Assembly (NCBI GenBank): GCA_026710795.1 | Contig: JAPOQK010000080.1 | Location: forward strand, 465-64,464 | Direction of reading: 5' to 3' | DNA from: Candidatus Poribacteria bacterium | GTDB taxonomy: Bacteria > Poribacteria > WGA-4E > WGA-3G | DNA length: 64,000 nucleotides | In this document: one piece after another, positions 13,901-47,356 of the stretch | How positions within the stretch are numbered: position 1 is the first letter of the stretch | How the letters are laid out: each line of letters opens with the position of its first letter | Position numbers and translations under genes: made by a program | Notes under the pieces: model-generated | Database searches by the model: none | Told to the model about the DNA's origin: nothing | What the model saw: only the letters and a program-made list of their open reading frames with translations

Positions 13901-15019
13901 CGGAATTCCTTAAACAATTCTTTCACTACAACGTTGGTTATGCAGGAGCGTTCTGAACCGCGCGGTGCATATATTCTGGAACGTGGGGCATACGAACATC
14001 GTGGAGAACAAGTCTATCCACAAACTCCGGCTGCACTCCCACCGATGGTGAAAGGTTCACCTCCAAACAGACTTTCACTCGCAAAATGGTTGGTTTCACC
14101 GAAGCATCCGCTCACATCGCGTGTCACAATTAACCGTTTCTGGCAACATATTTTCGGTGCGGGTATTGTCCGAACATCTGAAGACTTCGGCACACAAGGT
14201 ACACCACCTACCCATCCAGAATTGCTGGATTGGCTTGCAACCGAATTTGTCGCATCCGAGTGGGACGTGCAAACAATGCTGAAACTGATGCTAACCTCGG
14301 CAACATATAAACAAAGTTCACGGGTTACCCCAGAGAAATTGGAACTTGATGCCGATAACGTGTTGCTTTCCAGAGCACCAAGATACCGGTTAGATGCAGA
14401 AATTGTGCGTGATAATGTCCTTACACTCAGTGGCCTGATGTTTAAACGTATTGGTGGACCGAGTGTCAAACCCCCGCAACCGGGTGGACTTTGGAAAGCA
14501 GTCGGGTTTACCGGTTCTAATACAGATACCTTTAGGAAAGATTCTGGTTCTGATAAGGTGCATCGCAGAAGTCTCTATACCTTCTGGAAGCGAACAGCAC
14601 CACCGCCGCAAATGAACATATTGGATGCACCATCACGTGAGGCTTGCACAATTCGTCGTGAACGCACGAATACACCAATGCAGGCGTTGATGTTGATGAA
14701 TGACCCACAGTTCTTTGAAGCGGCACGCGTTTTTGCTGAACGAACAATCAAATTAGGAGGTAATACACCGGAAGAGCGAATCTCCTATATGTTTGAGTTG
14801 GCAACTGCCCGCGAACCCAAACCTACAGAAGCCGCACTGCTCCTTGAAACGATGAAGGCTCACGCGGAAGAACTGAAAGCAGATCCAGAGGCAGCCAAAG
14901 AACTCATTGCTGTCGGGGAATCCAAACCTGATGAAAAATTAGATGCAGTCGAAGTCGCTACATGGACAATGATTGCAAACCTTATCCTCAATCTGGACGA
15001 AGTCCTGAATAAGGGATAA
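10976..15019 (+). CDS. PSD1 family protein: planctomycete cytochrome c (PSCyt1) - DUF1549 - acidic repeat linker - discoidin-like - DUF1553
   Basis: 1347 aa; GTG start with AGGGAG RBS; signal peptide; CFACHGPDEKARKANLRLD haem-binding PSCyt motif; RRLSFDLTGLPPTLEEI DUF1549 hallmark; C-terminal WTMIANLILNLDEVLNKG PSD1-type end. Contains a KKAAEEA x3 run plus five or more PETDxGKDAEKPAEEAA repeats. Confidence 0.85.
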   Translation: MKSAKSSIPLTYLLVCLCILLLGVPLASADNHETAQTPVDYTQDIRPILSNNCFACHGPDEKARKANLRLDTKEGAFSEPSGYPILVPEKPDESELYLRIVSEDESYQMPPADFNKTLTPEQIETIKHWINQGAKWEDHWAFTTPVRPTLPAVKKADWVKNPIDAFILSRLEKEGLRPAEEADKRSLIRRLSFDLTGLPPTLEEIHLFLNDDSPNAYEKLINTFMAKPEYGEHMARLWLDVARYGDTHGLHLDNYREMWPYRDWVINAFNNNIPFDQFTIEQLAGDLLPEPTLDQRVATGFNRCHVTTSEGGSIAEEYYVRYAVDRANTTATVWMGLTAGCAQCHDHKYDPISQKEYYQLYAYFNNITENAMDGNRKDSPPVVKLPTPEQTAQLAKYDEQIKDLDAQSKGSIPHIDAAQTAWENRMPRWTTIKPEVVLSQGLATLKINDDNSVLASGTNPDKEVYEVIAKLPPGKWSALRLEGIPDKSLPGSGIGRSDNSNVVLTGFSVDIVPAEMAEEMLAEAQETAKKAEEAIQKAAEEAKKAAEEAKKAAEEAAKATDDSAVEAAPETDDGKDAEKPVEEDTPETDEEKDAEKPAEEAAPETNEGKDAEKPAEEAAPETDDGRDAEEAALETDEGKAAEEATVDGETPETDEAKDADETSEEAAEPAEEKDPWTSVPVVMAWADKEQSGGEFSIANAIDDKLETGWGLESNNNRGNSRQAIFLVANPFGIEGGLLRIRLNHESESAKHHLGRFRLAVTDAPTIYPIGSKVGLANWHSVGPFTAEHGNVAFYNVYEPETKPVNTGDKFTVGSQELTWKQQAHWKDGEVHNDIVGENSATYLYRNISSETKQKATLYLSSNDGLKVWVNQTEVLASNIQRDAVPDTDRIQIQLNPGNNALLLKVVNYSGPSGFYFRMESDTPMVTANIVDTIAIERGKRNGDQQTQIREYYRRNVTTDEGLKKLYADISDTQNKRNSLNNSFTTTLVMQERSEPRGAYILERGAYEHRGEQVYPQTPAALPPMVKGSPPNRLSLAKWLVSPKHPLTSRVTINRFWQHIFGAGIVRTSEDFGTQGTPPTHPELLDWLATEFVASEWDVQTMLKLMLTSATYKQSSRVTPEKLELDADNVLLSRAPRYRLDAEIVRDNVLTLSGLMFKRIGGPSVKPPQPGGLWKAVGFTGSNTDTFRKDSGSDKVHRRSLYTFWKRTAPPPQMNILDAPSREACTIRRERTNTPMQALMLMNDPQFFEAARVFAERTIKLGGNTPEERISYMFELATAREPKPTEAALLLETMKAHAEELKADPEAAKELIAVGESKPDEKLDAVEVATWTMIANLILNLDEVLNKG
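12537..13010 (+). repeat. in-frame tandem repeats encoding an acidic low-complexity linker inside the PSD1 gene (KKAAEEA x3, then ~51-bp/17-aa PETDxGKDAEKPAEEAA x5 or more)
   Basis: Direct DNA repeats (gcagcaccagaaac(c/t)gatga(a/t)gg.aaggatgctgaaaaacc...) visible in the sequence. They generate spurious overlapping ORFs on both strands in the track. Confidence 0.8.
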
Positions 15020-15834: not shown

Positions 15835-18795
15835 ATGAAGTCTTTTTTCGTTATGGTTCTCATACTCATATCTTCCCTCACATTTGCATATAGCGATACT
15901 GTGGTAATTCCAGACGTGAACTTAGATGCTGCTGTGCGCGAAGCACTCAGTTTAGATCCAACTGATCCTATCCCACAAAATAAGTTGGAAGAATTGGAAA
16001 GTTTAGATGTCATAGAAAAAGGCATAAAAGACCTAACAGGTATAGAAAAAGCAACAGGATTAACGACATTAGAACTTAATGACAATCAAATTAGTGACAT
16101 CACACCCCTTACTAACTTAACTAAACTGACAGAACTATACCTTACAAATAATCAAATCAGTGACATCAAGGCATTGGCAAGCTTAACTGAACTCATAAAA
16201 TTATCAATCTCTGGCAACCAAATCAATGATATTACTCTGCTTGCTGGATTGTCAAAACTCACAGAATTATGGTGTAACAATAATCAAGTCAGTGATATAA
16301 AACCAATTGCTGGATTGACGCAACTGACGCAATTATATCTTTGGAATAATCCACTCAAGGACATTACGCCGCTGGAAAGAATGGAACAGTTAAGGGAGTT
16401 AAGTCTTGGGGGAAATCCGATCAACGACTTAACACTATTCTCAGGTATGACGGAATTGAGGAAGCTATGGCTTTGGGATAGTCAAATCAGTGATATCACC
16501 CCGCTTGCTGGATTGACAATGCTAACAGACTTATACCTCACGAAAAATCCTATCAATGACATCACCCCACTTGCTGGATTGACAAAACTGGAAAAGTTAT
16601 ACCTCATAGAAAATCAGATTAACGACATCACCTCGCTTGCTGGACTAACCAAACTTACAACATTATGGCTTGACGACAATCAAATCAGCGACATTACGCC
16701 ACTCGCGGGATTGACACAGCTGACAGACCTAACTCTCATGGATAATCAAGTTCGTGATATAACATCACTTTCTGGATTGGCGAAGTTGAAATGGTTACGT
16801 ATCTGGAACAATCAGATTAGTGACATCACACCACTTGCGAACTTGAAACAGTTGGCAACCTTATTGCTCTTAAATAATCAGATTTCTGACATTACGTCTC
16901 TTGCTGATCTAACACAATTAACGCATCTAAATCTTTCCGGAAATCAGATCCAAGACATCACACCACTGACGGGATTAACACAATTAACATATTTATCCCT
17001 CAGTAGAAATCAAATCAGCGACATCAAAACCCTATCAAGATTGGCACAGTTGACATCATTATCCCTTGACGATAATGGAATCAGTGACATAAAACCAATT
17101 GAAGGTTTAATAAAGATTCGTAGTTTATTGCTCAGCAGAAATAAAATTGACAACATCACGCCAATTGCTGGGTTGACGGAACTCACACAGTTATGGCTTT
17201 CAAACAATCAGATCAACGACATCAAATCGCTCTCAGAATTAACGAATTTGACAGAATTATTGATGTATGACAATCAAATCAAGGATATCAGTCCTGTTGA
17301 GAATCTGACAAGTTTAACGCTTTTAAAGGTCTATGGAAATCCAATTCAAAATATGGAATCACTTGTGAGGTTATTGAAACAAGTTCCAGATTTGAAATTG
17401 GATATCCAAGCACAGCTTCCAATAACGTCTATCCCCGATCCAACAATACCGGATGTTAATTTAGCCAACGCGGTGCGAGAGGAACTCGGTTTGAAACGTA
17501 GCGATACCATACCGTTGATGAATTTGACAGAATTAGAGGAGTTAAATGTCGGAGGAAAGAGTATAGAAGACTTAACAGGACTGGAAAAGGCGACAAAATT
17601 AAAGGTCTTGGTACTTGATCGTAATCAAATCAGTGATATTATGCCGCTCGCTAATCTGAAACAACTCACAGACTTAGATCTTAGTCGAAATCAGATCAAT
17701 GACATCACACCTCTTGCAGACTTGACCCAACTCACTGAGCTGAAGATTCAGAATAACCAAATCAGCGACTTAAAACCGCTTTCTAAATTAACACAAATTA
17801 CATTGTTACGTCTTAATGACAACAAAATCAAAAATGTCATGCCGCTCATACGAATGTCGAAGTTGACACATTTATATCTTACCAGAAATCAAATAAGCGA
17901 TATAACACTCCTCGGGGCATTAACACAGTTGGAAGAGTTAGCCATTGGTGGTAATCAGTTTCGTGACATCACGTTTCTTGCTGACTTGACTAACCTAAAG
18001 ATGTTATGGCTTTGGGGAAGTCAGATTCAGGACATCACACCACTCAAAAAACTAACCCAATTAACAGGCTTAAACCTTCATGACACACAAATTCGTGATA
18101 TCACAGTCCTTGGTGGAATGACAAAATTGACATGGCTCCGAATTCATAAAAATGCAATCAACGATATTACGCCTCTCGCGAACTTAACACAACTAACAGG
18201 AATACTGCTTCAGGAAAATCAAATCACGAACCTTACACCTCTCGCTGGGTTGAAAAAATTGGATAGTTTGAGTCTCCAAAAAAACCAAATTGATGATATC
18301 ACACCACTCAAAGATTTAACAAAGTTAAAAGAATTAAATCTGGGTGGAAACAAAATTACCGACATCACACCTATCCAAAATTTACGAAGTTTGACATCAT
18401 TTTGGGTATGGGATAATCAAATTACCGACATAACACCATTAACTGAGTTGACACAAATGGAGAAGTTGTGGCTTTGGGGAAATCAAATCAGCGATCTCAC
18501 ACCGATAACTAATTTCACAGAATTGGAAGAGTTAAGCCTTGGAGTTAACAAAATCAGTGATCTCACTCCCATAGTAGGAGCAACAAAGTTAGAACTATTG
18601 GATATAGACAGAAACCAAATCACTGACATCAGCCTCCTTGTAAAGTTTCCAAATTTAAGGAGTCTAAATCTCAGGGGAAATCCAATTCAAGATATGGAGC
18701 CTCTTCAAATACTGTTGAAACAAAATGAGAATTTAAAAGTGGATGTACCGACATCAATTGAACTGAATATTCAGCCACCACCTGCAAATAAGTAA
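15835..18795 (+). CDS. large secreted LRR protein made of two internalin-like LRR modules
   Basis: 986 aa; signal peptide MKSFFVMVLILISSLTFA; about 40 22-aa LRRs. N-cap motif (IPDVNLxxAVREeLxL...IPxxxLxELEeL...KxIxDLTGxEKAT) occurs at residue ~20 and again at ~540; both modules end with GNPIQxME.L. Confidence 0.8.
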   Translation: MKSFFVMVLILISSLTFAYSDTVVIPDVNLDAAVREALSLDPTDPIPQNKLEELESLDVIEKGIKDLTGIEKATGLTTLELNDNQISDITPLTNLTKLTELYLTNNQISDIKALASLTELIKLSISGNQINDITLLAGLSKLTELWCNNNQVSDIKPIAGLTQLTQLYLWNNPLKDITPLERMEQLRELSLGGNPINDLTLFSGMTELRKLWLWDSQISDITPLAGLTMLTDLYLTKNPINDITPLAGLTKLEKLYLIENQINDITSLAGLTKLTTLWLDDNQISDITPLAGLTQLTDLTLMDNQVRDITSLSGLAKLKWLRIWNNQISDITPLANLKQLATLLLLNNQISDITSLADLTQLTHLNLSGNQIQDITPLTGLTQLTYLSLSRNQISDIKTLSRLAQLTSLSLDDNGISDIKPIEGLIKIRSLLLSRNKIDNITPIAGLTELTQLWLSNNQINDIKSLSELTNLTELLMYDNQIKDISPVENLTSLTLLKVYGNPIQNMESLVRLLKQVPDLKLDIQAQLPITSIPDPTIPDVNLANAVREELGLKRSDTIPLMNLTELEELNVGGKSIEDLTGLEKATKLKVLVLDRNQISDIMPLANLKQLTDLDLSRNQINDITPLADLTQLTELKIQNNQISDLKPLSKLTQITLLRLNDNKIKNVMPLIRMSKLTHLYLTRNQISDITLLGALTQLEELAIGGNQFRDITFLADLTNLKMLWLWGSQIQDITPLKKLTQLTGLNLHDTQIRDITVLGGMTKLTWLRIHKNAINDITPLANLTQLTGILLQENQITNLTPLAGLKKLDSLSLQKNQIDDITPLKDLTKLKELNLGGNKITDITPIQNLRSLTSFWVWDNQITDITPLTELTQMEKLWLWGNQISDLTPITNFTELEELSLGVNKISDLTPIVGATKLELLDIDRNQITDISLLVKFPNLRSLNLRGNPIQDMEPLQILLKQNENLKVDVPTSIELNIQPPPANK

Positions 18796-18846: not shown

Positions 18847-20325
18847 ATGGACCCAATTAAGGAATATTTGAAACTTGAAACCCGCCGCCAATTCTTCGGC
18901 AAATGTGCAACAGGACTCGGCGGTGCAGCCCTTGCCACATTGCTGCCGAATAGCATCGTAAACGCTCTTGAACAGCAGGCAGGAACGCGGGTTGGCGGAT
19001 TACCAGAACTGCCGCACTTTGCACCAAAAGCGAAACGCGCAATCTACCTATTTATGTCTGGTGCGCCTTCGCAAATGGACCTGTTTGACTACAAACCGAA
19101 GATGGGGGAATTCTTTGATAAAGACCTACCGGAAACAGTCCGGATGGGACAACGTCTTACTACAATGACCTCAGGACAAGCACGGTTCCCAATTGCACCG
19201 TCTATCTTTGAGTTCAAAAAACACGATAATGGAGGCGATGGTGCGTGGCTTAGCGAGTTGCTGCCTCATACAGCAACTATGGTTAAGGATATCGCTATCG
19301 TCAAATCAGTACATACCGATGCGATTAATCACGATCCAGCAATCACTTTCGTCTGTACCGGTGATGAGACTCCGGGTAAACCGAGTCTCGGTGCATGGCT
19401 TAGTTACGGTCTCGGTAGTGAAAACCAAAACCTTCCCGCTTTCATTGTGATGAACGCGACTTGGAGTGGTCCGAAGGGGGCACAGGCACTCTACAATCGT
19501 CTCTGGGGTTCTGGTTTCCTCCCATCTGAGCATCAAGGTGTGCTACTCCGCAGTCAAGGCGATCCTGTGCTGTTCCTCTCAAATCCGAAAGGTATGAATG
19601 AAAAAACACGCAAACGGATGCTTGATTCTTTAGTCAAACTCAACGAGGAAATATATGAGGAAGTCGGTGATCCTGAAACGCATGCGCGTATCACACAATA
19701 TGAGATGGCATTCCGTATGCAGACCTCTGTTCCTGAGCTCACGGATCTGAAACAGGAGACTGACAAAGTTAAGGAGATGTACGGTCCTGAGGTTGACACA
19801 CCCGGAACATTTGCTAATTGCTGCATCCTTGCTCGTAGGATGATGGAACGCGATGTCCGTCTCGTTCAAATCTTCCACCGCGGATGGGACCAGCACGGTG
19901 ATTTACCCAAGAACATCCGAAATCAGGCGCGCGACATTGACCAACCCGCAACCGCACTCGTTCAAGACCTGAAACAACGCGGAATGCTTGATGATACGCT
20001 CGTTGTGTGGGGTGGTGAATTCGGTCGAACTGTCTATTGCCAAGGGGCACTTAAGAAGGATAACTATGGACGAGATCATCATCCTAAGTGTTTCACGCTA
20101 TGGATGGCTGGTGGTGGTATCAAAGGTGGGGTCGTTTACGGCGAAACTGATGATTTCAGTTACAATATCGTCAAAGACCCTGTATCTGTTCGTGACCTAA
20201 ACGCAACAATCCTTAACCAACTCGGCATTGACCACGAACGCTTGACCTATAAGTTCCAAGGACTTGATCATCGGTTAACTGGCGTTGAAGAGAAAGCACG
20301 TGTTGTCAATGAGATATTGGCATAA
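18847..20325 (+). CDS. DUF1501 domain protein (sulfatase-like, Tat-secreted), copy 1
   Basis: 492 aa; Tat motif [19 protein letters not shown]. This family is the canonical genomic partner of PSCyt/DUF1549/DUF1553 proteins. Confidence 0.8.
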
Positions 20326-20339
20326 CAAAGGAGTTAACA

Positions 20340-21818
20340 ATGGACCCAATTAAGGAATATCTGCAACTTGAAACACGCCGTCAATTCTTCGGAAAATGTG
20401 CGATGGGTCTCGGAGGAGTAGCCCTCGCTTCATTGCTTCCGAATAGTATTGTAAATGCCCTTGAACAGCAAGCAGGTACACGGGTTGGCGGTTTGTCCGA
20501 ACTACCACACTTTGCACCAAAAGCGAAACGTGCTATTTACCTATTCATGTCCGGTGCGCCATCGCAAATGGACATGTATGATTATAAACCGAAAATGGGT
20601 GAATTCTTTGATAAAGATCTACCGGAAACAGTTCGGATGGGACAACGTCTTACCACCATGACCTCCGGACAGAAACGTTTCCCGATTGCACCATCTATAT
20701 TTGAGTTTAAGAAGCATGACAACGGTAGTGATGGTGCTTGGGTTAGCGAATTGCTCCCGCATACTGCTTCTATGGTAAAGGATATAGCAATCGTAAAATC
20801 GTTGCATACCGATGCGATTAACCACGACCCGGCTATTACCTTTGTCTGTACTGGCGATGAAACTCCCGGTAAACCGAGTCTCGGTGCGTGGCTTAGTTAC
20901 GGATTAGGCACAGACAACAAAAATCTTCCATCTTTTATTGTAATGAATGCCACGTGGACAGGTAGGAAGTCCGCACAAGCACTATATAACCGACTATGGG
21001 GTTCTGGTTTTCTCCCATCAGAACATCAAGGTGTCCTACTCCGAAGTCAAGGCGATCCGGTACTATTCCTCTCAAATCCGAAAGGCATGAGCGAAAAAGC
21101 ACGAAAACGGATGCTTGATTCTTTAGTCAAACTCAACGAGGAAATCTACGAAGAGGTAGGTGATCCTGAAACGCATGCACGTATTTCCCAATATGAGATG
21201 GCATTTCGTATGCAGTCCTCTGTCCCTGAACTCACTGACCTAAAACAGGAGTCAGATAAAGTCAAGGAAATGTATGGTCCAGAGGTAGACACCCCAGGCA
21301 CATTCGCGAATTGCTGTATTCTTGCGCGTCGGATGATGGAACGTGATGTTCGCCTCGTACAAATCTTCCATCGCGGATGGGATCAGCACGGAAACTTACC
21401 TAACGATATTCGAAACCAATGTCGTGACATTGACCAACCCGCAACGGCACTTGTCCAAGACTTGAAACAACGTGGTATGCTTGATGATACACTCGTTGTG
21501 TGGGGTGGTGAATTCGGACGGACTGTTTATTGCCAAGGGGCACTCAAGAAGGATAACTACGGGAGAGATCATCATCCGAAATGCTTTACGATGTGGATGG
21601 CAGGCGGCGGTGTCAAACCCGGAATCGTTCACGGTGAAACTGATGACTTCAGCTACAACGTCATCAAAGACCCCGTATCTGTCCGAGACCTTAACGCTAC
21701 GATACTTAACCAACTCGGTATTGACCACGAAAGGTTGACCTATAAGTTCCAAGGACTTGATCATCGGTTAACTGGGGTTGAGGAAAAAGCGCGGGTCGTT
21801 AACGAAATCTTGGCATAA
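20340..21818 (+). CDS. DUF1501 domain protein, copy 2 (tandem duplicate)
   Basis: 492 aa, about 90% aa and 87% nt identity to copy 1 over full length. Confidence 0.8.
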
Positions 21819-21929
21819 TCAAAACATACAGTAAGTGTGCCATCTTCAACAGTTGAACTGCTGCATATCTATCTCTGTCTACACGCAAAACTATCGCAAC
21901 TACAGTTTTTTAAGATGTATGGAGTTGAA

Positions 21930-23090
21930 ATGCAAGTTTACCATGGTACCGAACAGACACTTGATGCAAATACATTCCTCTCAATTCTGCAAGAAGATTA
22001 TGACAGCATATTTTTGACAAATTGCATAATTGAAGGTGTAATTGTCTTCTCATCTGAAACTGATGTAGAGATTGATGGACAATTGGTAGTTGATAAGGAA
22101 ATTGTTTGCGTTCGGTGCACGTTTAAAAACGTTTTCAAATTCGAAAATACCTTATTCAAAAAAGAAGTGTTTTTCGGTAATTCAGTGTTTCAAGATACTG
22201 TTAATTTCCGTAATAGTGTGTTCCAGAAAGCCTGTGACTTCGGGGAATCCACCTTTGAAGGTTCAGTCCTTTTCCGTGGTGCAGCCTTCAACGGAATGGC
22301 ACGCTTTTCCAAAACACGTTTTCAACAGGTTGCAGATTTTAACGATTCGCAATTCTCGGAAAACGCGGTTTTCAGAAATGCAATCTTCCAAGATGCTTCA
22401 CATTTCAACCGAGCGTTTTTCAGCAAGAAATTAGATTCCGTACAAGCACGATTCTCAGATACTGTTGTCTACAATGAGGCAACGTTTAGCGAAGAAACTG
22501 ATTTCACTGCTGCACGATTTGCCGTTTCCGCGTCCTATCAAAATGTGAGTTATATATCAGACACAATATGGCAGTGGATACGGAATAAGTTTTCTCATCA
22601 GTCAATACAACCTACAGAATTCTATTTAGATAGTGAAGACATTAATGGGGTTTTGAATCCATTTTTCAAACGTTACGTAGCGGATCAACAGTACGTTCGG
22701 GCATTCAAAGAAAAACACCCATTTTGGGCATTGGTCTGGAGATGGAGTTCAGATTATGGTCGCAGTTTAGCACTTTGGGCACTCTGGTCATTGCTGATTG
22801 CTCTTTCGTTCTCATTTGTTTATATGAAAGCACCGATGTGGTTTCCAGGATGGCTTCAAAAAACAATGCCTAAGTTCCACCAAGTAACAGTCACCGAAGC
22901 AAACGGAGACCTGACATTTTGGAAATCCTTTTACTTTAGTATTGTCACCTTTACGACATTAGGATTCGGGGATGTGGTTGCAGCCAATACATCCGCTCGC
23001 ATTCTCGTCACCCTTGAAGTCATTTTCGGATATATTATGCTCGGAGGATTAATCAGTATTTTTGCCAATAAACTTGCCAGTAGAAGTTAA
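21930..23090 (+). CDS. pentapeptide-repeat protein fused to a 2-TM K+-channel-like pore domain, paralog 1
   Basis: N-terminal tandem A(D/N)FxxxxF pentapeptide repeats (NSVFQDTVNFRNSVFQKACDFGESTFEG...). C-terminal TM1 LALWALWSLLIALSFSFVY, pore helix plus filter FYFSIVTFTTLGFGDV, TM2 ARILVTLEVIFGYIMLGGLISIFA. Start chosen at MQVYHG (GGAG RBS); the track start at 21837 is probably too far upstream. Confidence 0.7.
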   Translation: MQVYHGTEQTLDANTFLSILQEDYDSIFLTNCIIEGVIVFSSETDVEIDGQLVVDKEIVCVRCTFKNVFKFENTLFKKEVFFGNSVFQDTVNFRNSVFQKACDFGESTFEGSVLFRGAAFNGMARFSKTRFQQVADFNDSQFSENAVFRNAIFQDASHFNRAFFSKKLDSVQARFSDTVVYNEATFSEETDFTAARFAVSASYQNVSYISDTIWQWIRNKFSHQSIQPTEFYLDSEDINGVLNPFFKRYVADQQYVRAFKEKHPFWALVWRWSSDYGRSLALWALWSLLIALSFSFVYMKAPMWFPGWLQKTMPKFHQVTVTEANGDLTFWKSFYFSIVTFTTLGFGDVVAANTSARILVTLEVIFGYIMLGGLISIFANKLASRS

Positions 23091-24377: not shown

Positions 24378-25562
24378 ATGTATGAAAAGCATGATGAGAC
24401 GATTGAAGCGCGGGAACTGCTTGAGGCATTGGAAAGCGATACCTCACACATCTCACTGAATAATTGCACGATTGAAGGCGTTATTGACCTACATGCAACA
24501 GAACTTGAACGCGATGCAAATGACCGAATCTGTATTGATAAAACCCTATCCTGTATCGGGTGTACTTTCAATAACATTGTTAATTTCCGAACAGCAGTTT
24601 TCCAACAAGAAGTCTCCTTCCGCCGTTCCGTTTTTGAGGCAGATGCCGATTTTGATGAAGCCACTTTCCAACATCAAAGCGGGAATCGTGAAACGATGCT
24701 TCACAGCGGTTTTCGTGAAACAACCTTTGCGGGTCGTGCTAACTTCCATAGTGTTGTTTTCCACAGAAGCGTAAGTTTTTGGCGTGCAAAATTCCACAAC
24801 GTCGCAGACTTCCACCAAGCACAATTTCATAATAACGCTGTTTTCCATGAAGCACAATTCCAAAAGGAAGTGAACTTTAGACGTGTGCTTTTCCAACAGA
24901 CACTTGATTGTACCGGTACAAACTTCGCACAAGTCGTTGAATTTAATCGGGCAACATTTATCGGTACCACCCTTTTTACTGCAGCAAAGTTTGCATCTGT
25001 CGCCTCCTTTCGTGATGTTCAGTATATCCCAAATACAATCCGTCAATCGATTGTAAATAGGTTCACCAAAAATCGCAAAAAACCTACAGAATTCTATTTG
25101 GACAGTCAACATGTGGACGAAGTTGCTAACCCATTTTTCAAACGTTATGTAGCGGATCAGCAGTTCATTCGTGCATTCAGTAAAGCGAATCCGATGTTAG
25201 CGCGTCTATGGAGATGGAGTTCTGATTATGGACGAAATCTGGGTTTATGGGCTTTTTGGTCACTGTTTTTTGCATTTCTGTTTGCTATAACATACATGCC
25301 GTTTCCATCGTGGACACCCGAATGGATGCAAACCTTATCCCCCCAATTTCATCAAGCGACTGGTCAGTATAGTGGTGAGCAGTTAACGTTTTGGAATTCC
25401 TTCTATTTCAGCGTTGTCACATTTACTACACTCGGTTTCGGTGATGTTGTAGCAGACAACGCCACCGCACGTCTACTTGTGACGTTGGAAGTCATTTTTG
25501 GCTATCTGATGTTAGGTGGGTTGATCAGTATCTTCGCAAATAAACTTGCAAGTCGTAGTTAA
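24378..25562 (+). CDS. pentapeptide-repeat protein fused to a 2-TM K+-channel-like pore domain, paralog 2
   Basis: 394 aa; same architecture and the same FSVVTFTTLGFGDVVADN filter; C-terminal 18 aa nearly identical to paralog 1 (FANKLASRS). Confidence 0.7.
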   Translation: MYEKHDETIEARELLEALESDTSHISLNNCTIEGVIDLHATELERDANDRICIDKTLSCIGCTFNNIVNFRTAVFQQEVSFRRSVFEADADFDEATFQHQSGNRETMLHSGFRETTFAGRANFHSVVFHRSVSFWRAKFHNVADFHQAQFHNNAVFHEAQFQKEVNFRRVLFQQTLDCTGTNFAQVVEFNRATFIGTTLFTAAKFASVASFRDVQYIPNTIRQSIVNRFTKNRKKPTEFYLDSQHVDEVANPFFKRYVADQQFIRAFSKANPMLARLWRWSSDYGRNLGLWAFWSLFFAFLFAITYMPFPSWTPEWMQTLSPQFHQATGQYSGEQLTFWNSFYFSVVTFTTLGFGDVVADNATARLLVTLEVIFGYLMLGGLISIFANKLASRS

Positions 25563-25636
25563 TGAAGTGAGTGTTTAATGGTAGTAGGTAGACTCTGTGG
25601 CCCGTCCACAAGTTAAAAAATATATGAATTTTACGA

Positions 25637-26005
25637 CTACTAATACCATTTCTAATAAATAAAGTGCCATTTGCTGAGGACTACTTGTAGGAGCGACCTC
25701 CTGGTCGCGACCGGGAGGTCGCTCCTACAGAAGAAAGATTTCCAATCAATAACAATGGTTGAATCCAGTAATGGGACAATAAATATTAGAATTGGTATAA
25801 CTAAAGTGTCGTCAATTGGCTTTACCTGAATAAGTCTATTTTCGTGTTTATCCACCCAAATTATTATACAGACTCACAACTAATACCATTTCCAACATAT
25901 AATGTCCCTTTTTGTAGCACAAACTGTTAGTTTGTGTCCTACAGCATTACTATACTAATAACCGAAAATGAGACAATTATTAATAGAAATGGTATAAGTA
26001 TTGCG
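25637..26005. repeat. two tandem MITE-like units, each bounded by ~35-bp terminal inverted repeats (TAATACCATTTCTAATA...AAGTG core)
   Basis: Four copies in alternating orientation: 25639-25672(+), 25770-25810(-), 25877-25910(+), 25965-26005(-). The core ACTAATACCATTTC(T/C)AATA recurs as its reverse complement TATTAGAAATGGTATAAG. Confidence 0.6.
25687..25728. repeat. 42-bp near-perfect palindrome GTAGGAGCGACCTCCTGGTCGCGACCGGGAGGTCGCTCCTAC
   Basis: The two 21-nt arms are reverse complements with one G.T mismatch. It lies inside the first MITE-like unit and shares the GAGCGACCTCC core with the dispersed REP-like element. Confidence 0.7.
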
Positions 26006-26130
26006 AAGTATTGAGAATTCGCTGTCTATAGTTTTTCATCTAATTATTCTCTCAGTGATTGTTCATTTTTGGAAGGAAAGAAGAAGAGAAATAAAAACTG
26101 AATCAATATTGATACGGAGGTCCTTAAAAA

Positions 26131-26795
26131 TGGCTAGAAAAATTTTTGTGTCCTATAAACACTCTGATGATAGTGTTGAACCCATTAAGGACGAAACAAC
26201 AGCACGTGCTTATGTTGATGAGTTAATTGAAATCTTTGAAGATGATGAAATCTATAAAGGTGAAGGCGATGAAGATTTGAGTGAATTCAAAGATGAAACG
26301 ATTGAAACTCACCTGAAAGATAAGATATACGACAGTAGCGTAACACTTGTTCTAATTTCACCAAATATGAAGGAATTGTTGAAAAATGAATCTGACCAAT
26401 GGATTCCTTGGGAAATATCATATTCTCTAAAAGAAATAACACGAAATGAGCGTACAAGCCAAACAAATGGCATGCTTGCAATTGTTTTGCCAGATTCAAA
26501 TTCATCATATAGTTATTATCTTGAAGAAAATACATGCACTGCTTGCAATTGCCGCACCCTACATACTAATACACTGTTTCAGATACTACGAGATAATATG
26601 TTCAATGTTATGGAACCAACATTTAGTAATTGTCCAGAACATCCTCCTGAAACTGTATATAAAGGTCATTCTTCCTATATTTATTCGGTTAAATGGAGTG
26701 ATTTTATAGGTGATACAGACAAATATCTTGACATAGTGGAAGAAATAAGGGAAAATATAAATGATTACGACATTACAAAAACAGTGAAAGATTAA
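26131..26795 (+). CDS. TIR-like domain protein (DUF1863 / ThsB-like) with C-terminal Cys/His-rich extension
   Basis: Start at MARKIFVSYKHSDD (GGAGG RBS 9 nt upstream); K/R-IFxSYxHxD is the typical ThsB/DUF1863 opening. SSVTLVLISPN....WIPWEISYSL resembles, from memory, the DUF1863 core (vtiVLiG....W.yEI). C-terminal CTACNC....CPEH could bind metal. Local GC about 33-35%. The ORF-track 5' extension (TTG at 26001) overlaps an inverted repeat and is less likely. Confidence 0.5.
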
Positions 26796-26905
26796 ATTGT
26801 GGATAAGTTTACTCTCAAATTGATATTGACAAGATCACCTATTATTTTCCACAGTATAATAAACTGTATATTAATTTGTAACACATGGCTAAGGAGGACA
26901 AAGTC

Positions 26906-27313
26906 ATGAACGGTACAGAAAAAGTCGTAAAACATTTGGAGATGATACAAGCTGTAATTAACCGTTTGGGACGAAACAGTTTTCTCTTAAAAAGCTGGAG
27001 TATGACAATTCTCGTTGCAGCCATGGTCTTAATCGCAAAGGAAGATCTACAAAATCCATATACTGTTTTAGTTCTTTTTCTTCCAATTTTTGGATTTTGG
27101 ATTTTGGATGGTTACTTTCTCCAGCAAGAACGACTGTTCCGAAAAGTCTATGACGAGGTCAGAGGACAAACTGATACCGAATTCGAAATGAATCTTGGCA
27201 AGCACAAAGACAAACCAAAGTGTAGTCGATTGTCTGCTACTTTTTCCCAAACACTCGTTATATTCTACTTGATAGAAATCCTTTTCGTAATTGCAGTAGC
27301 TTATTTCTTTTAG
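26906..27313 (+). CDS. small 3-TM membrane protein (possible SLATT-like effector partner of the TIR gene)
   Basis: Perfect AAGGAGGA RBS 8 nt before ATG 26906. Predicted N-terminal amphipathic helix, TM1 WSMTILVAAMVLIA, TM2 VLVLFLPIFGFWILDGYFL, a ~55-aa loop, TM3 TLVIFYLIEILFVIAVAYFF. Same strand and 110 bp after the TIR-like gene. Confidence 0.45.
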   Translation: MNGTEKVVKHLEMIQAVINRLGRNSFLLKSWSMTILVAAMVLIAKEDLQNPYTVLVLFLPIFGFWILDGYFLQQERLFRKVYDEVRGQTDTEFEMNLGKHKDKPKCSRLSATFSQTLVIFYLIEILFVIAVAYFF

Positions 27314-27653
27314 TTAATAATGCGTACTATGAGACACGTACTTCAGTGTTGAACAGGATGATGTTTGGGTGTTAATTAGGTCCGCAATAGTTGGTTAATA
27401 AGGAAATTACCACTCTGCTGGCTCATAGATAGTACAGTTCGTTGTTTTCATTCCGTCTACATCCTCACATTCCGCATCATCCCAAATTCACCCAAAAAAT
27501 CAAAAAAACACCCACTCAATCTTATACATCCATAAAACATATTGGATATATATTGTTCCAAAATCCACAACCCCTTCCAATCCTCAACAACACGTGCTAT
27601 AATACTATTACTATGAAAAACACAACCACATACAAATCCAACATAACCGCATT

Positions 27654-27689
27654 CGTAGGTCGGATCGAGCAAAGCGACCTCCGACAAAT
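27654..27689. repeat. REP-like imperfect palindrome CGTAGGTCGGAKCGAGCRAAGCGACCTCCGAC (copy 1)
   Basis: Further copies at 27861-27895, 47186-47217, 47325-47356 (inverted) and a degenerate one at 62027-62065. All are intergenic. Confidence 0.6.
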
Positions 27690-27860
27690 AGCCAAAAACA
27701 AAAGATACAGTTTTTCAAGTTTTTTTTACACAGTAAACCGGTGAAAACAACCTATAAACCCAGTCTGGTACAACAACGAGACAACAACACAGTAAAGATA
27801 CAGTTATGTAAAAAAAGGCATAAAACTGTATCTTTTTAAAACGGAGGAAAACAACACGAT

Positions 27861-27895
27861 TCGTAGGTCGGAGCGAGCGAAGCGACCTCCGACAG
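27861..27895. repeat. REP-like palindromic element copy 2
   Basis: cgtaggtcggagcgagcgaagcgacctccgac. Confidence 0.6.
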
Positions 27896-28309
27896 GGTAT
27901 TAAACAATACAAAAACAGCAAAAAATCAAAGAATAATAAGTAATTCAAAGGTTACGGTTTTTCTTTTTTTTTACATTCAAAAAAACCGATGAAAACAACC
28001 CATAAACCCAGACAGGAACTAAAACCAGTGAAAAATACCAAAAGTTACCGTTATGTAGAAATTAGACATAAAACCGTAACCTTTTTATACGGAAAAAAAC
28101 CCAATGAAAATGCAAGACAAACAATTCACAGTCAAATATAATGTCCGAAGTCTTGTGCATGGTGTTCCATTCGTTTCTTTATGCAAAAAACTTTACACAC
28201 CAAAAATCAACCATTGACAGAATATGGAAATAGAAATATAATTAAATAGGAAATGCCATACCTAAGCATTACTCAACCACATTTCACTGTTCGTTTAAGG
28301 AATCTCTTT

Positions 28310-30646
28310 ATGTCATTCAGGATCTTATCTAAACTTGTTGTTATCCTCATACTATGCATCTCCATAACACATGTAACAGCGCAAGAGTCTCCTAACACCG
28401 ATTACTTCGACCACATCACCCTATTCTCAGACGGCAGAATCACACGATTCGCACAGATGCCGATTCGCGTGTTCATTTCATCTGTCATAAAAGAGAGTCC
28501 ATACCTACCAGAACTTCGCTACGCAATGCGTGAATGGGAGACTGCAACCGAACAACTGATCCAATTTCAGGAAATCGATACACCAGATAAAGCAGATATC
28601 AAAGTTAGTTGGGGATATAGTAGTCTGATGGATATACATGATACCCGTCTCGGAAGTGCACAGTTAAGACGGATACCTAACAGACAGGCAACAGATAAGG
28701 ATAACGAAGTAATAATCGAAGTAGAAATAATACTCATGCTGGAAGGCGATGATACCGTCACAGAACTATCCGAACTGGAAATGCGTACAGTCTGCCTACA
28801 CGAGTTCGGACATGCAATTGGATTATGGGGACACAGTCCACACCCAGGCGATATATGCTATCCTACTGCCACAGCACAGCATCCGTCTCTGCGAGATATA
28901 AACACCTTACGTAAACTCTATAATACACCGATTGGCACTCCTCAACACGACGAGGCAATCAAAGCATTAAAAACGGAGATTTTACAAGAACCCAGGGAAC
29001 ATTACCATCACTTTCTACTCGGTAATGTCCATTTTGACAAAGGTGATATGGAATCCGCCATTGATAGTTATCAAGATTGTATCCATATAAATGAACACTT
29101 CCAACCTGCCATTGAAAAACTATTGATGGCTTATGAAGCAATAGGGCAGTTATCTACGGCGATCAATCTGCTTGAACAAAGGATAAAAACCAAACCGAGA
29201 TCTGCCGATTACAACACACTCGGAATTCACTACTACAATAAAGGTGAAGTTGATATGGCGATAGATTCCTTTAAAAGTGCTGTTGCTCTCAACCCTTACC
29301 ACAAAGCATCAAAACATAACTTACACCAACTCTTCAGAGAAAAGGCACTCCGCTCGCTAAAAGCCGAGGACTTTGAAACAGCAACGAAGATGTTTGAGAA
29401 GATTATCCAACTCAACCCGATGGATTCAACGACATATATGTTGATGGGTGAGGGTTATGCTCGGGCTGGACATTACAAGAATGCCATTGATTACTATCAA
29501 AAAGCACTTAAGATAAATCCTGTTAGTAGAATAACCAAACGAGGACTCGCGCAATCATATAACAACTACGGAGTCACGCTCAGAAATAGTAAGAAATGGG
29601 ATGATGCTATCGCCGCTTACCATAAGGCATTGGAAATACATCCCGCTTTCCATATTGCCCGATCAAACTTGAGTGATGCTTTTTGGCAGAAAGCAAACAC
29701 CTTACGCAATAACGGACAAGTTGATGAAGCCATCAACGCTTATTTGGAATTGCAGAAACTTCAACCAAAGGACACACAAATCTCCAGTTTACTTGGTGAG
29801 TTGTATCTCAAAAAACGGAATTATGCCGCTGCTGTCACTGAATTTCATAAAGTCTATTTGTCAAAACCTGATGATCCTCAAGCACGCCATAACCTGATTG
29901 CAGCATATCATCAATCAGCACAACATCTGATTGATCGGAAAGATTTCGGTTCCGCTATTGAACTCCTTCAGAAAGCAGTGATCATTGCCCCTACCGAAAC
30001 CAATATTCGTTTGAGTTTAGCACATGCATATCAAAGCATTGGTGAATATGAAAGTGCCCAAACAGAACTTAATCATGTCATTAAAAGCGATCCACACAAC
30101 CAGCAAGCAAATACCGAGCAAATAAACCTCTATATTCGTCTTGGAAATGCGTTTGTGCAGCAGAAGAATTATCCTGCCGCACTTGCACAGTTCCAAGCAA
30201 TCCCTGAAACTGAAAGAGATGTCGTCATAAACAATATAATAGGTTACCTCTATCTCGTTCAAGGGAGATATACTGAGGCATTGACTGCCTTTGATAAGGT
30301 AATTTCCCAAGATCCATACAATAGACCAACCTATCAAAATCTCATTTCGCTTGAAGCTCAAGTGGCAAACCGAATCTTTGGACGCAATAAAACTGATATA
30401 CTCATACGGACGCGATGCATACTCGCTATCTGCTTGTTAAACCAGAACAAATTTGACGCTGCACTTACAAAATACCAACAAGCAAAAGATAGCAAATCAG
30501 AAAAACATCAAGAACTTTTATATAATACTGGAACAAAATTACTGAGTAGATTTGAAGCACAGAAGGATTTGGAGAAAAGTGCTACGATACGTCAATGGAT
30601 TGGAGAACTAAACTACAACCCCAACAAGGTACTTGATGACCGTTAG
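28310..30646 (+). CDS. secreted zincin (matrixin-like HExxHxxGxxH) metalloprotease domain fused to ~500 aa of TPR repeats
   Basis: Start at MSFRIL with signal peptide (ORF-track start 28253). VCLHEFGHAIGLWGHSPH zinc motif; many TPR units (AIDSYQDCIHINEHF..., AIDYYQKALKINP..., AIAAYHKALEIHP...). Confidence 0.75.
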   Translation: MSFRILSKLVVILILCISITHVTAQESPNTDYFDHITLFSDGRITRFAQMPIRVFISSVIKESPYLPELRYAMREWETATEQLIQFQEIDTPDKADIKVSWGYSSLMDIHDTRLGSAQLRRIPNRQATDKDNEVIIEVEIILMLEGDDTVTELSELEMRTVCLHEFGHAIGLWGHSPHPGDICYPTATAQHPSLRDINTLRKLYNTPIGTPQHDEAIKALKTEILQEPREHYHHFLLGNVHFDKGDMESAIDSYQDCIHINEHFQPAIEKLLMAYEAIGQLSTAINLLEQRIKTKPRSADYNTLGIHYYNKGEVDMAIDSFKSAVALNPYHKASKHNLHQLFREKALRSLKAEDFETATKMFEKIIQLNPMDSTTYMLMGEGYARAGHYKNAIDYYQKALKINPVSRITKRGLAQSYNNYGVTLRNSKKWDDAIAAYHKALEIHPAFHIARSNLSDAFWQKANTLRNNGQVDEAINAYLELQKLQPKDTQISSLLGELYLKKRNYAAAVTEFHKVYLSKPDDPQARHNLIAAYHQSAQHLIDRKDFGSAIELLQKAVIIAPTETNIRLSLAHAYQSIGEYESAQTELNHVIKSDPHNQQANTEQINLYIRLGNAFVQQKNYPAALAQFQAIPETERDVVINNIIGYLYLVQGRYTEALTAFDKVISQDPYNRPTYQNLISLEAQVANRIFGRNKTDILIRTRCILAICLLNQNKFDAALTKYQQAKDSKSEKHQELLYNTGTKLLSRFEAQKDLEKSATIRQWIGELNYNPNKVLDDR

Positions 30647-47185: not shown

Positions 47186-47356
47186 GTAGGTCGGAGCGAG
47201 CAAAGTGACCTACGACATATTTGAGTAGATATTTGTTTATTGTGAGGTGCCATGTTGGTCTTTGACAGTGATTGTATTGCAGAAAAAACCCTTCTGTGAT
47301 TTCTGTGATTCTGACAACAAACATGTCGGAGGTCGCTACACTCGTTCCGACCTACG
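47186..47356. repeat. inverted pair of REP-like elements enclosing ~108 bp, between tRNA-Leu and mnmE
   Basis: 47186-47217 cgtaggtcggagcgagcaaagtgacctacgac; 47325-47356 gtcggaggtcgctacactcgttccgacctacg, the reverse-complement orientation. Confidence 0.55.

Follow-up and report, generated by a model that had tools for sequence, protein, structure and literature searches.

The 64,000-nt stretch of Candidatus Poribacteria DNA analysed here (the window) carries a gene for a TIR protein followed on the same strand by a gene for a small membrane protein, and the question raised by this pair is whether it is a defence system and, if so, of which kind. A first-pass annotation had proposed a minimal Thoeris-like pair and had considered a TIR gene beside a bare small membrane protein to be a new arrangement. 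We found that the family of the second protein (ORF2) was modelled in PADLOC-DB v2.0.0 (2023) and that the pair corresponds to type V Thoeris (Yirmiya et al., bioRxiv December 2025, doi 10.64898/2025.12.03.692087). Hence, the pair is a further example of a catalogued kind rather than a new arrangement. Judged by sequence comparison, the locus is, with a probability of roughly 85%, a type V Thoeris system that is intact, with thsB as its first gene and thsF as its second. The same comparisons extend type V Thoeris to Candidatus Poribacteria and leave the present understanding of Thoeris unchanged.

The first gene, thsB (ORF1; 26130-26795, forward strand), encodes 221 aa plus a stop codon and is predicted to be a ThsB-type TIR protein, the putative sensor and signal synthase. 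Its length and its end at 26795 are those given previously, and its start is 26130, one nt from the 26131 given then. A GGAGG ribosome-binding site, read from the sequence, lies on the forward strand at 26116-26120, 9 nt 5' of the ATG. All the motifs that had been quoted are present (MARKIFVSYKHSDD, SSVTLVLISPN, WIPWEISY and CTACNC...CPEH). We found that Pfam PF08937 matches ORF1 at 29.1 bits (gathering cut-off 21.2) and that the PADLOC ThsB model PDLC00428 matches its whole length (E 3.4e-84). In a profile search of the PDB, ORF1 retrieved 9vyl, the crystal structure of Bacillus dafuensis ThsB1 (BdThsB1) bound to NAD, at E 1.2e-96 and with 57% identity over the full length. Corroborating these results, the AlphaFold2 model of ORF1 (pLDDT 87.8) superimposes on 9vyl_A with a TM score of 0.93 and an rmsd of 1.8 Å. 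The suspected ThsB-type TIR is thereby recognized, and on sequence and model ORF1 is a full-length ThsB. An NCBIfam search gave no match for either ORF1 or ORF2.

The glutamate singled out earlier as catalytic, in the WEI of WIPWEISY, is Glu95 (codon at 26412-26414, forward strand), the putative catalytic residue of the TIR NAD-processing site. It is invariant in both of our ThsB family alignments (30 and 50 sequences) and falls in the same alignment column as the Glu shared by all the published ThsB TIR domains compared, that of B. cereus MSX-D12 among them. The C-terminal half of ThsB carries a Cys/His cluster, C136-x2-C139-x-C141 ... C168-x2-H171 (26535-26642, forward strand). In the 30-sequence alignment (A2), C136, C139, C168 and H171 are invariant and C141 is at least 90% conserved, a level that it reaches in A2 only; in the 50-sequence alignment (A3), invariance holds for C139 and C168 alone, and C136 and H171 come close to it. 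The cluster, probably a metal (zinc) site, is also retained where ThsB has a SIR2-SLOG ThsA as its partner, and BdThsB1, whose structure is solved, has it too.

BdThsB1 belongs to a type I Thoeris system (B. dafuensis FJAT-25496), in which this TIR protein (TIR1) defends together with ThsA and makes a ThsA-activating cADPR isomer (Ofir et al. 2021, doi 10.1101/2021.01.06.425286). ORF1 shares with it the identity and fold given above, the Cys/His cluster and the catalytic Glu. However, BdThsB1 signals to the SIR2-SLOG NADase ThsA, whereas the neighbour at the present locus is a predicted membrane effector; a SIR2-SLOG ThsA does not stand beside thsB, and we found no SIR2 or SLOG gene within about 10 kb.

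That neighbour, thsF (ORF2; 26906-27313, forward strand), encodes 135 aa and is a predicted membrane effector of the PADLOC PDC-M50A family; independent gene callers also picked its 135-aa start. Read from the sequence, the spacer between the two genes on the forward strand is 110 bp (26796-26905), and the thsF ribosome-binding site, AAGGAGGA, lies at 26891-26898, 7 nt 5' of the ATG, both as described before. The predicted layout is an N-terminal amphipathic helix running into the first membrane segment, a second segment, a basic cytoplasmic loop and a third segment, all three encoded on the forward strand. Segment 1 (26978-27040, residues about 25-45) has a 19-residue Kyte-Doolittle average of up to 1.97 and falls inside model helix 3-46. 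Segment 2 (27059-27121, residues about 52-72, hydropathy up to 2.08) corresponds to model helix 58-86, which extends into a conserved polar stretch (D68, E75, R79 and Y82), and segment 3 (27239-27307, residues about 112-134, hydropathy up to 2.67) corresponds to model helix 115-134. Most Lys and Arg residues of ORF2 lie in the N-terminal stretch and the 73-110 loop.

The AlphaFold2 model of ORF2 is all-helical with a mean pLDDT of 95.9, and its family comprises 3716 clusters at 50% identity. The conserved residues of the family (H10, Q15, R20, K29, D68, E75, R79 and Y82) are all present in ORF2, including the basic/polar residues R20, K29 and R79. Family size, hydropathy and model thus bear out the earlier description of a conserved membrane protein with three segments. 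With the ThsF model, the helical matches from a PDB fold search all fell short of significance (best E = 3), and a PDB sequence-profile search with ThsF gave no match. No relative of ORF2 was found in a scan of IMG/VR.

All four PADLOC PDC-M50A models match ORF2 at full length (best E 5.7e-38), and its PADLOC hits are exclusively PDC-M50A. In PADLOC-DB this family belongs to the candidate system PDC-M50, which joins a small membrane protein (A) to a TIR-like protein (B), and a PDC-M50A protein does stand beside a TIR-like protein here. ORF1, however, has a weak match to PDC-M50B (E 5.5e-4), since it is described far better by the ThsB models, and PDC-M50 is a computational candidate. A literature search on "PDC-M50" returned nothing useful, nor did one on "8xMP", the name of a Pfam family (PF24838) to which ORF2 and some relatives show weak, near full-length, sub-threshold similarity along with DUF3278 (PF11683) and DUF2270 (PF10028). 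ORF2 scores 15 bits against 8xMP, for which the cut-off is 30; one relative, 77% identical to ORF2, has a precomputed PF24838 hit. None of the three families reaches its curated cut-off, and the ThsF family is outside the coverage of the 2025 Pfam-A.

These searches also bear on the nature of the effector. Three other kinds of Thoeris likewise use a TIR-made signal to trigger a membrane-disrupting effector, namely type II (Macro plus TM), type VII (SLATT, ThsH) and type X (ion channel), but they differ in effector folds, ThsB clusters and signals (His-ADPR, canonical cADPR, unknown), and ORF2 lacks a Macro, SLATT or channel domain. The first-pass annotation had raised a SLATT/DUF4231 effector, and ORF2 as a two-helix pore of the SLATT type would make the system type VII-like, since SLATT effectors define type VII Thoeris. 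The sole argument for this is a general analogy, a small membrane effector beside a TIR gene. Pfam gave no SLATT family for ORF2 at E <= 1, and none appeared among the families matched by 91 members of the ORF2 family at E <= 0.01. In addition, PADLOC returned nothing but PDC-M50A, the hydrophobic segments number three rather than two, and the ThsB clusters found with SLATT effectors are different ones, with canonical cADPR as the signal. We therefore consider a SLATT effector extremely unlikely.

Type V Thoeris, in which a TIR protein, ThsB, is joined to a three-helix membrane effector, ThsF, was described and tested by Yirmiya et al. (doi 10.64898/2025.12.03.692087), who reported that two such systems defended B. 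subtilis and that the ThsB of both made 3'cADPR upon infection. When supplied without phage, 3'cADPR had a toxic effect on cells with the complete operon of one system, that of B. thuringiensis, and Tad1 lowered the type V defence. In the system of Bacillus sp. 1NLA3E, ThsB made 3'cADPR, but supplying this molecule had no toxic effect. Three membrane helices are reported for ThsF, whose AlphaFold3 heptamer model has an ipTM of 0.78. Phage defence, 3'cADPR and toxicity in that study are those of Bacillus members only (same doi).

In their Table S1, homologues of ORF1 at full length (cluster 2742576382) carry the label 'DUF2270 - Type V'; the validated type V systems are ThsB clusters 2734579397 and 2612357774 (doi 10.64898/2025.12.03.692087), so the ThsB clade of the present locus differs from those of both. 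The TIR protein in row 2683723276 of the table matches that of a Klebsiella plasmid (L010 4443-5306) at 282 of 282 residues, and 16 bp upstream of the plasmid TIR gene on the same strand lies a gene for a 141-aa ORF2 homologue (blastp E 1.3e-24; family HMM E 7.7e-31). Searching genome contigs with the validated ThsB of Bacillus sp. 1NLA3E retrieved 71%-identical relatives, not that strain; behind one such thsB lies a gene for a 135-aa protein that shares 40% identity with ORF2 (E 2e-30). ORF2 shares 35.5-46% identity with the proteins encoded beside type V ThsB genes (E 1e-24 to 1e-35 for listed or near-validated ones). Homology to ThsF is judged here on these partners, with PADLOC PDC-M50A as a stand-in for the authors' DefenseFinder ThsF HMM.

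In agreement with type V, the locus has a ThsB-type TIR protein with the putative catalytic glutamate, an adjacent ThsF homologue of about the same length (~135 aa) with three predicted membrane helices, a two-gene layout and an ORF1 cluster listed in the published table. It differs in its host phylum, Poribacteria, in its single thsB, which lies upstream across a 110-bp spacer, and in a ThsB that, in contrast to the two validated systems, is BdThsB1-like and carries a Cys3His cluster. The effector annotation differs as well: the published label is PF10028 (DUF2270), and we found no PF10028 hit to ORF2 in Pfam at E <= 1. The same family matches only 2 of 91 ORF2-family members (E about 0.004) and none of the examined partners of type V ThsB genes. 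Hence, the DUF2270 label of ThsF is not reproduced by the 2025 Pfam-A, and this holds family-wide and not just for this copy.

Co-conservation of the two genes, proposed earlier as a check, is found across phyla. A TIR gene neighbours the ORF2-family gene in every informative case examined, spanning Poribacteria, Bacillota, Enterobacteria, Vibrio, plasmids and a phage. This includes all five informative cases among distant ORF2-family representatives, most of the Poribacteria contigs, a Vibrio phage, and plasmids of Priestia, Klebsiella and Vibrio. The same PDC-M50A models also recognize the ThsF-like partners found in Klebsiella, Priestia, Exiguobacterium and the Vibrio phage.

ThsB proteins close to ORF1 also stand beside the other effector. 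On a Paenibacillus larvae plasmid, a bona fide ThsA gene (PADLOC E 4.6e-193) adjoins a ThsB-type gene, and on a B. cereus plasmid the ThsB-type gene adjoins one annotated, by annotation only, as 'SIR2 family protein'; these two ThsB proteins are 58-59% identical to ORF1. In Vibrio chagasii, a ThsB 52% identical to ORF1 adjoins an ORF2 homologue. By these identities and neighbours, one and the same ThsB clade switches between ThsA (SIR2-SLOG) and ThsF as its effector, which makes 3'cADPR the most likely signal at the present locus.

On the type V reading, ThsB would be a cytoplasmic TIR enzyme, inactive until it senses a cue of phage infection, and would then turn NAD+ into a cyclic ADP-ribose isomer via Glu95, most likely 3'cADPR. 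The signal would bind ThsF, an inner-membrane protein of 135 aa that would cross the membrane three times from a cytoplasmic N-terminus and that may form a ring of about seven subunits with basic inter-subunit pockets on the cytoplasmic side. Ligand would open or disorder this ring, the membrane barrier would be lost, and the infected cell would no longer support phage replication (abortive infection). Signal identity, oligomeric state, pore formation and phage trigger are what we infer for this locus.

The same architecture could instead run on other chemistry, either with a ThsB whose product is not 3'cADPR but a different cADPR isomer or a conjugate of ADPR, or with a ThsF that needs a second, infection-derived input. 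Pointing this way are the 1NLA3E system, whose ThsB made 3'cADPR that was harmless when added, the wide variation of signals among Thoeris types, and the modest identity (35-46%) between ORF2 and partners of validated-type ThsB proteins. However, BdThsB1, with which ORF1 shares 57% identity, makes a product that activates the 3'cADPR-specific reporter B. cereus ThsA, the same ThsB clade is paired with ThsA on plasmids, and effector swapping inside one TIR cluster suggests a common signal. We regard different chemistry as possible if unlikely. Since added 3'cADPR was not toxic with 1NLA3E, the activating signal may differ between ThsF subfamilies. This system also hints that the Poribacteria ThsB-ThsF could be a functionally distinct branch, combining a Cys3His sensor of the BdThsB1 type with a signal or gating unlike the B. 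thuringiensis paradigm, a proposal that we hold to be rather doubtful. If it were true, the many diverged copies and TIR-rich arrays in sponge-symbiont genomes could reflect an unusually heavy reliance on TIR signalling in this habitat.

It is also conceivable that the TIR protein itself kills, by depleting NAD+, and that the membrane protein is an anchor, sensor or immunity partner that receives no signal. Many bacterial TIR proteins are NADase effectors in other systems, and beyond ThsB the fold matches of the ORF1 model include SARM1 TIR domains. Against this, ORF1 has neither a membrane segment nor an additional docking domain, its ThsB clade sends a diffusible signal to ThsA and is swapped between ThsA and ThsF, and 3'cADPR without phage is toxic to cells with a whole type V operon, consistent with signal-driven toxicity of the effector. 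Taken together, these points render a killing TIR protein very improbable, and signalling from ThsB to ThsF remains our preferred reading.

Two genes of a sponge-symbiont MAG, previously annotated "TIR domain-containing protein" and "hypothetical protein", thereby gain names. Since the Pfam label DUF2270 fails to retrieve the ThsF family where PADLOC PDC-M50A succeeds, annotators that rely on Pfam would miss such systems. ThsF, a compact and confidently modelled protein of 135 aa that has no solved relative, is a reasonable structural target for a putative cyclic ADP-ribose-gated membrane ring.

In most relatives, thsF is surrounded by two or three thsB genes, with the genes overlapping or nearly touching, and relatives usually have a TIR gene downstream of thsF; here a single thsB lies upstream, across the 110-bp gap, and the downstream TIR gene is absent. 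A tblastn search of 27314-28250 for a decayed second thsB, for which TIR proteins from relatives (163 aa and 104 aa) served as queries, gave no match. A promoter scan gave matches (26728-26756 and 26820-26848) that were no commoner than in shuffled sequence, and a terminator scan found no terminator-like site; hence, co-transcription of thsB and thsF is plausible. An Rfam search of 25400-28400 gave a chance-level hit only. We found dN/dS of 0.10-0.15 for both genes against Poribacteria relatives, and two further assemblies contain the locus at 100% identity. Both genes are therefore under purifying selection and are real genes rather than chance ORFs.

These results make it improbable that the module, inserted between housekeeping genes, is now a non-working, decaying or orphaned remnant that has lost, for example, a second thsB or its promoter. 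Decay does occur in related contigs (thsB fragments of 66-69 aa in L006 and L007, IS insertions and truncated TIR genes of 104 aa), and both the missing downstream TIR gene and the lack of a promoter above chance would suit such a history. However, both frames are full length with good ribosome-binding sites, all invariant or nearly invariant family residues are kept, the dN/dS values are low, and pairs with a single thsB occur elsewhere (L027, L029 and Klebsiella plasmids). The evidence thus favours an intact type V system.

The low-GC islet noted earlier is real, with 32.9% GC in ORF1, 36.8% in ORF2 and 34.4% over 25563-28252, but the flanking genes are at 41-43% rather than the 45% reported (window, 41.7%). 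As for a defence islet, the low-GC module stands, but it is a lone two-gene module amid housekeeping-like genes and does not belong to a larger defence island in the window. The upstream pentapeptide/ion-channel gene (24378-25562) was considered as a type X-like effector and rejected because relatives of the module have no such neighbour, its GC is host-like and type X uses another ThsB cluster.

In blastn of 25000-28600 against the contigs of relatives (L001, L002 and L005-L008), the alignable module spans 25997-27395 (forward strand), with 77-81% identity to thsB-thsF modules of other Poribacteria-like contigs, and this segment is likely the unit of horizontal transfer. Its left edge coincides with the end of a MITE-like element (25638-26000) that has 35-nt terminal inverted repeats and holds a nested copy (25879-25999) and a 44-nt palindrome (25686-25729), in line with the inverted repeats reported on that side. 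On the right, as also reported, are C/A-rich repeats, two units about 210-250 bp apart with a REP-like hairpin (27640-28038) and GC skew down to -0.41. The hairpin recurs at 47186 and 47325; hence, this block belongs to a repeat that is dispersed in the host DNA and does not mark the border of an island.

We found ORF1 (thsB), a TIR gene at 26130-26795 on the + strand, to encode 221 aa with GGAGG 9 nt 5' of its ATG. ORF2 (thsF), a small membrane-protein gene at 26906-27313 on the + strand, encodes 135 aa, begins 110 bp 3' of ORF1 and has the RBS-like AAGGAGGA at 26891-26898. The first-pass annotation had described both genes in this way, and every protein motif it quoted is present; only its ORF1 start was one base too high, the true start being 26130. 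An in-frame ATG at 26885 is an alternative ORF2 start that would add 7 residues, and the 135-aa form is used by homologues and by independent gene callers. ORF1 has a GC content of 32.9% and ORF2 one of 36.8%, compared with 41-43% in the flanking genes and 41.7% across the window; the low-GC islet reported earlier is real but shallower than the figure given. The window belongs to a MAG of Candidatus Poribacteria; NCBI entries of this organism match both proteins at 100% identity, and two more assemblies carry the locus at 100% identity. The genes are intact, genomically linked and under selective constraint, with dN/dS of 0.10-0.15 for both relative to Poribacteria relatives.

ORF1 scored 29.1 bits against Pfam PF08937 (ThsB_TIR; cut-off 21.2) and matched the PADLOC ThsB model PDLC00428 end to end (E 3.4e-84). 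The sole solved protein matched by a 50-sequence ORF1-family profile was PDB 9vyl, over its whole length (E 1.2e-96), and the AlphaFold2 model of ORF1 (pLDDT 87.8) superposes on 9vyl_A ("BdThsB1 with NAD") with TM 0.93, rmsd 1.8 Å and 57% identity. Hence, ORF1 is a full-length ThsB, and the Thoeris-like reading first proposed for the pair was right. The 9vyl entry is titled BdThsB1 and its molecule was named "Putative cyclic ADP-D-ribose synthase TIR1" by the depositors; we take it to be the B. dafuensis TIR1 that determined the phage specificity of one type I Thoeris system, and whose product is the cADPR isomer activating ThsA (Ofir et al., doi 10.1101/2021.01.06.425286). Glu95 (WIPWEISY) is invariant in the ORF1 family and shares its alignment column with the Glu that is invariant in published ThsB domains. 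The Cys/His cluster is also present, but it is conserved across the ThsB clade of ORF1 rather than unusual, as had been suggested, and is retained also in ThsB copies partnered with ThsA. C136, C139, C168 and H171 are invariant in a 30-sequence ORF1-family alignment, in which alone C141 is nearly invariant. When 50 sequences are aligned, full invariance is kept by C139 and C168 only, and C136 and H171 are nearly invariant. The cluster is probably a structural metal site.

For ORF2, no Pfam or NCBIfam model reached threshold, and four of four PADLOC PDC-M50A models matched it at full length (best E 5.7e-38). An exhaustive phmmer search placed 3716 clusters at 50% identity in the family at E <= 0.001, 1698 of them at E <= 1e-10. 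Across 91 diverse members the invariant columns are Q15, R20 and K29, and H10, S25, F26, W31, F64, W65, D68, E75, R79, Y82 and S114 are nearly invariant; ORF2 has all of these residues. Its monomer model (pLDDT 95.9) has helices at 3-46, 51-56, 58-86 and 115-134, and hydropathy gives three membrane segments (about 25-45, 52-72 and 112-135), in agreement with the three previously noted. Lys and Arg are mostly in the N-terminal stretch and the 73-110 loop, a distribution consistent with an internal N-terminus and an external C-terminus. Neither fold nor sequence searches returned a solved structure like ORF2. The family has weak near full-length matches to 8xMP (PF24838) and DUF3278, and the suggestion of a SLATT-like effector was not supported.

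A scan of TIR operons in defence islands has defined Thoeris types V-XI, of which type V comprises ThsB and ThsF, a three-helix membrane protein labelled DUF2270 (Yirmiya et al., bioRxiv December 2025, doi 10.64898/2025.12.03.692087). Three links tie our locus to type V. First, TIR cluster 2742576382 of their Table S1 ("DUF2270 - Type V") contains full-length ORF1 homologues, Cys cluster included. Second, the TIR of row 2683723276 ("DUF2270 - Type V") matches a Klebsiella pneumoniae plasmid TIR at every residue (282/282), and 16 bp upstream of the plasmid TIR on the same strand lies a 141-aa homologue of ORF2 (35.5% identity end to end, blastp E 1.3e-24; family HMM E 7.7e-31). Third, a 135-aa protein 40% identical to ORF2 (E 2e-30) follows, after a 2-bp gap, a ThsB that shares 71% identity with the validated one of 1NLA3E. 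In addition, homologues of the validated B. thuringiensis ThsB adjoin ORF2-family genes in plasmids of Priestia (NZ_CP023318), Terribacillus and Klebsiella and in a Vibrio phage; no ThsF is listed beside the copies in a B. cereus plasmid and in Priestia NZ_CP085436. The ThsF-like partners of type V-linked ThsB genes all match PDC-M50A. Hence, PDC-M50 (PADLOC, 2023) and type V Thoeris share an effector family. PF10028 (DUF2270) of the 2025 Pfam-A matched neither ORF2, nor the type V ThsB partners, nor 89 of the 91 aligned family members, the other two being matched at E about 0.004; we ascribe this to how the ThsF family has been labelled and do not count it against membership. ThsF has neither a solved structure nor a valid Pfam model. 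The first-pass annotation considered that the gene pair would be a new arrangement; this claim fails, since the pair had entered PADLOC in 2023 as PDC-M50 and was characterised in 2025 as type V Thoeris. Hence, the pair belongs to known families and is a further example of a known system, found here in a new phylum, Candidatus Poribacteria.

An ORF2-family gene adjoins at least one TIR gene in every informative context examined, so the pair is co-conserved elsewhere, as the earlier reading required. These contexts include Poribacteria-like contigs, plasmids of Priestia, Klebsiella and Vibrio, and chromosomes of Exiguobacterium and Thalassobacillus. All five informative distant representatives (34-43% identity) adjoin TIR genes; one lies within a type I restriction-modification locus, and another, in a circular genome of 1.47 Mb, is flanked by obg and a rhodanese gene. 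Among plasmid records, the genus profile of ORF2-family matches mirrors that of one ThsB type (Klebsiella 42 vs 43, Escherichia 36 vs 35). The exceptions to pairing are two contigs in which thsB has decayed to a 66-69-aa fragment.

In an ERZ27280308 contig (1900-3394), a TIR-thsF-TIR module has inserted into a type I restriction-modification locus, between its specificity (S) and restriction (R) genes. The 14-kb Vibrio phage 10N.286.55.A5_PE002 (Vinavirales) has thsB-thsF at 1347-2635, directly after the integrase gene; hence, type V Thoeris travels on phage genomes too. Six Poribacteria-like metagenome contigs are TIR-rich arrays in which two or three distinct thsB genes surround thsF, with two thsF paralogues per locus, IS elements in between and decayed thsB fragments (66-69 aa and 104 aa). 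These arrays suggest that Thoeris modules turn over rapidly in sponge symbionts.

ThsB proteins of the ORF1 clade occur with different effectors. On a Paenibacillus larvae plasmid, one that is 58-59% identical to ORF1 lies beside a bona fide ThsA (PADLOC E 4.6e-193); on a B. cereus plasmid, another lies beside a gene known by its annotation as "SIR2 family protein"; and in Vibrio chagasii a third (52% identity) is paired with ThsF. Hence, one ThsB clade is exchanged between ThsA and ThsF effectors, which is worth noting. Given this pairing and the 57% identity to BdThsB1, the product of ORF1 is most likely 3'cADPR. For other type V members, defence, signal and toxicity have been shown in the literature: two Bacillus systems defend B. 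subtilis, the ThsB of both makes 3'cADPR on infection, 3'cADPR is toxic to cells with the B. thuringiensis system and not to those with the system of Bacillus sp. 1NLA3E, Tad1 reduces defence, and an AlphaFold3 model shows ThsF as a ring of seven subunits that has basic pockets between them (Yirmiya et al., doi 10.64898/2025.12.03.692087). We infer a corresponding signal, ring and pore for the Poribacteria copy: a phage cue would activate ThsB, Glu95 chemistry on NAD+ would yield 3'cADPR, this would bind the cytoplasmic face of the ThsF ring, the membrane would be breached and the infection would abort.

DNA similarity to other Poribacteria thsB-thsF modules (77-81%) is restricted to about 25997-27395 and begins exactly at the right end of a MITE-like element. 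Hence, the transferred unit is likely the bare two-gene module. This element (25638-26000), which bears out the inverted repeats described on the left, is bounded by terminal inverted repeats of 35 nt and contains a shorter copy nested at 25879-25999 and, at 25686-25729, a near-perfect palindrome of 44 nt. The C/A-rich block described on the right is a non-coding stretch (27440-28250) in which GC skew falls to -0.41 and AT skew rises to +0.33. Two repeat units of about 210-250 bp lie in it, together with several short inverted repeats; Rfam gave no match to the stretch, and related contigs do not conserve it. The window has four copies of its 31-nt GC-rich hairpin motif, GTAGGTCGGAGCGAGCGAAGCGACCTCCGAC, with none expected by chance (27655-27685, 27863-27893, 47186-47216 on the + strand and 47325-47355 on the - strand). 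Since the copies at 47186 and 47325 are 20 kb distant from the stretch, the hairpin looks like a REP-like dispersed host repeat and not part of the islet's border.

The neighbouring genes (an LRR protein, DUF1501 paralogues, two pentapeptide-repeat/ion-channel paralogues, a GFO/IDH/MocA oxidoreductase, an M10-TPR protein and MurB) look like housekeeping or typical symbiont genes; no other defence genes were seen, and no second TIR gene lies within the window. The paralogues at 21837-23090 and 24378-25562, which fuse N-terminal pentapeptide repeats to a two-helix K+-channel pore, flank the oxidoreductase gene, and thsB starts 568 bp after the end of the second. An ion channel is the effector of type X Thoeris; because relatives of the thsB-thsF module have no pentapeptide/ion-channel neighbour, the adjacency is probably coincidental. 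Further upstream are a 986-aa leucine-rich-repeat protein (15835-18795), tandem DUF1501 paralogues (18847-21818) and a 1347-aa PSCyt1/PSCyt2/PSD1 protein (10976-15019); large repeat proteins of this type are common in sponge-symbiont genomes.
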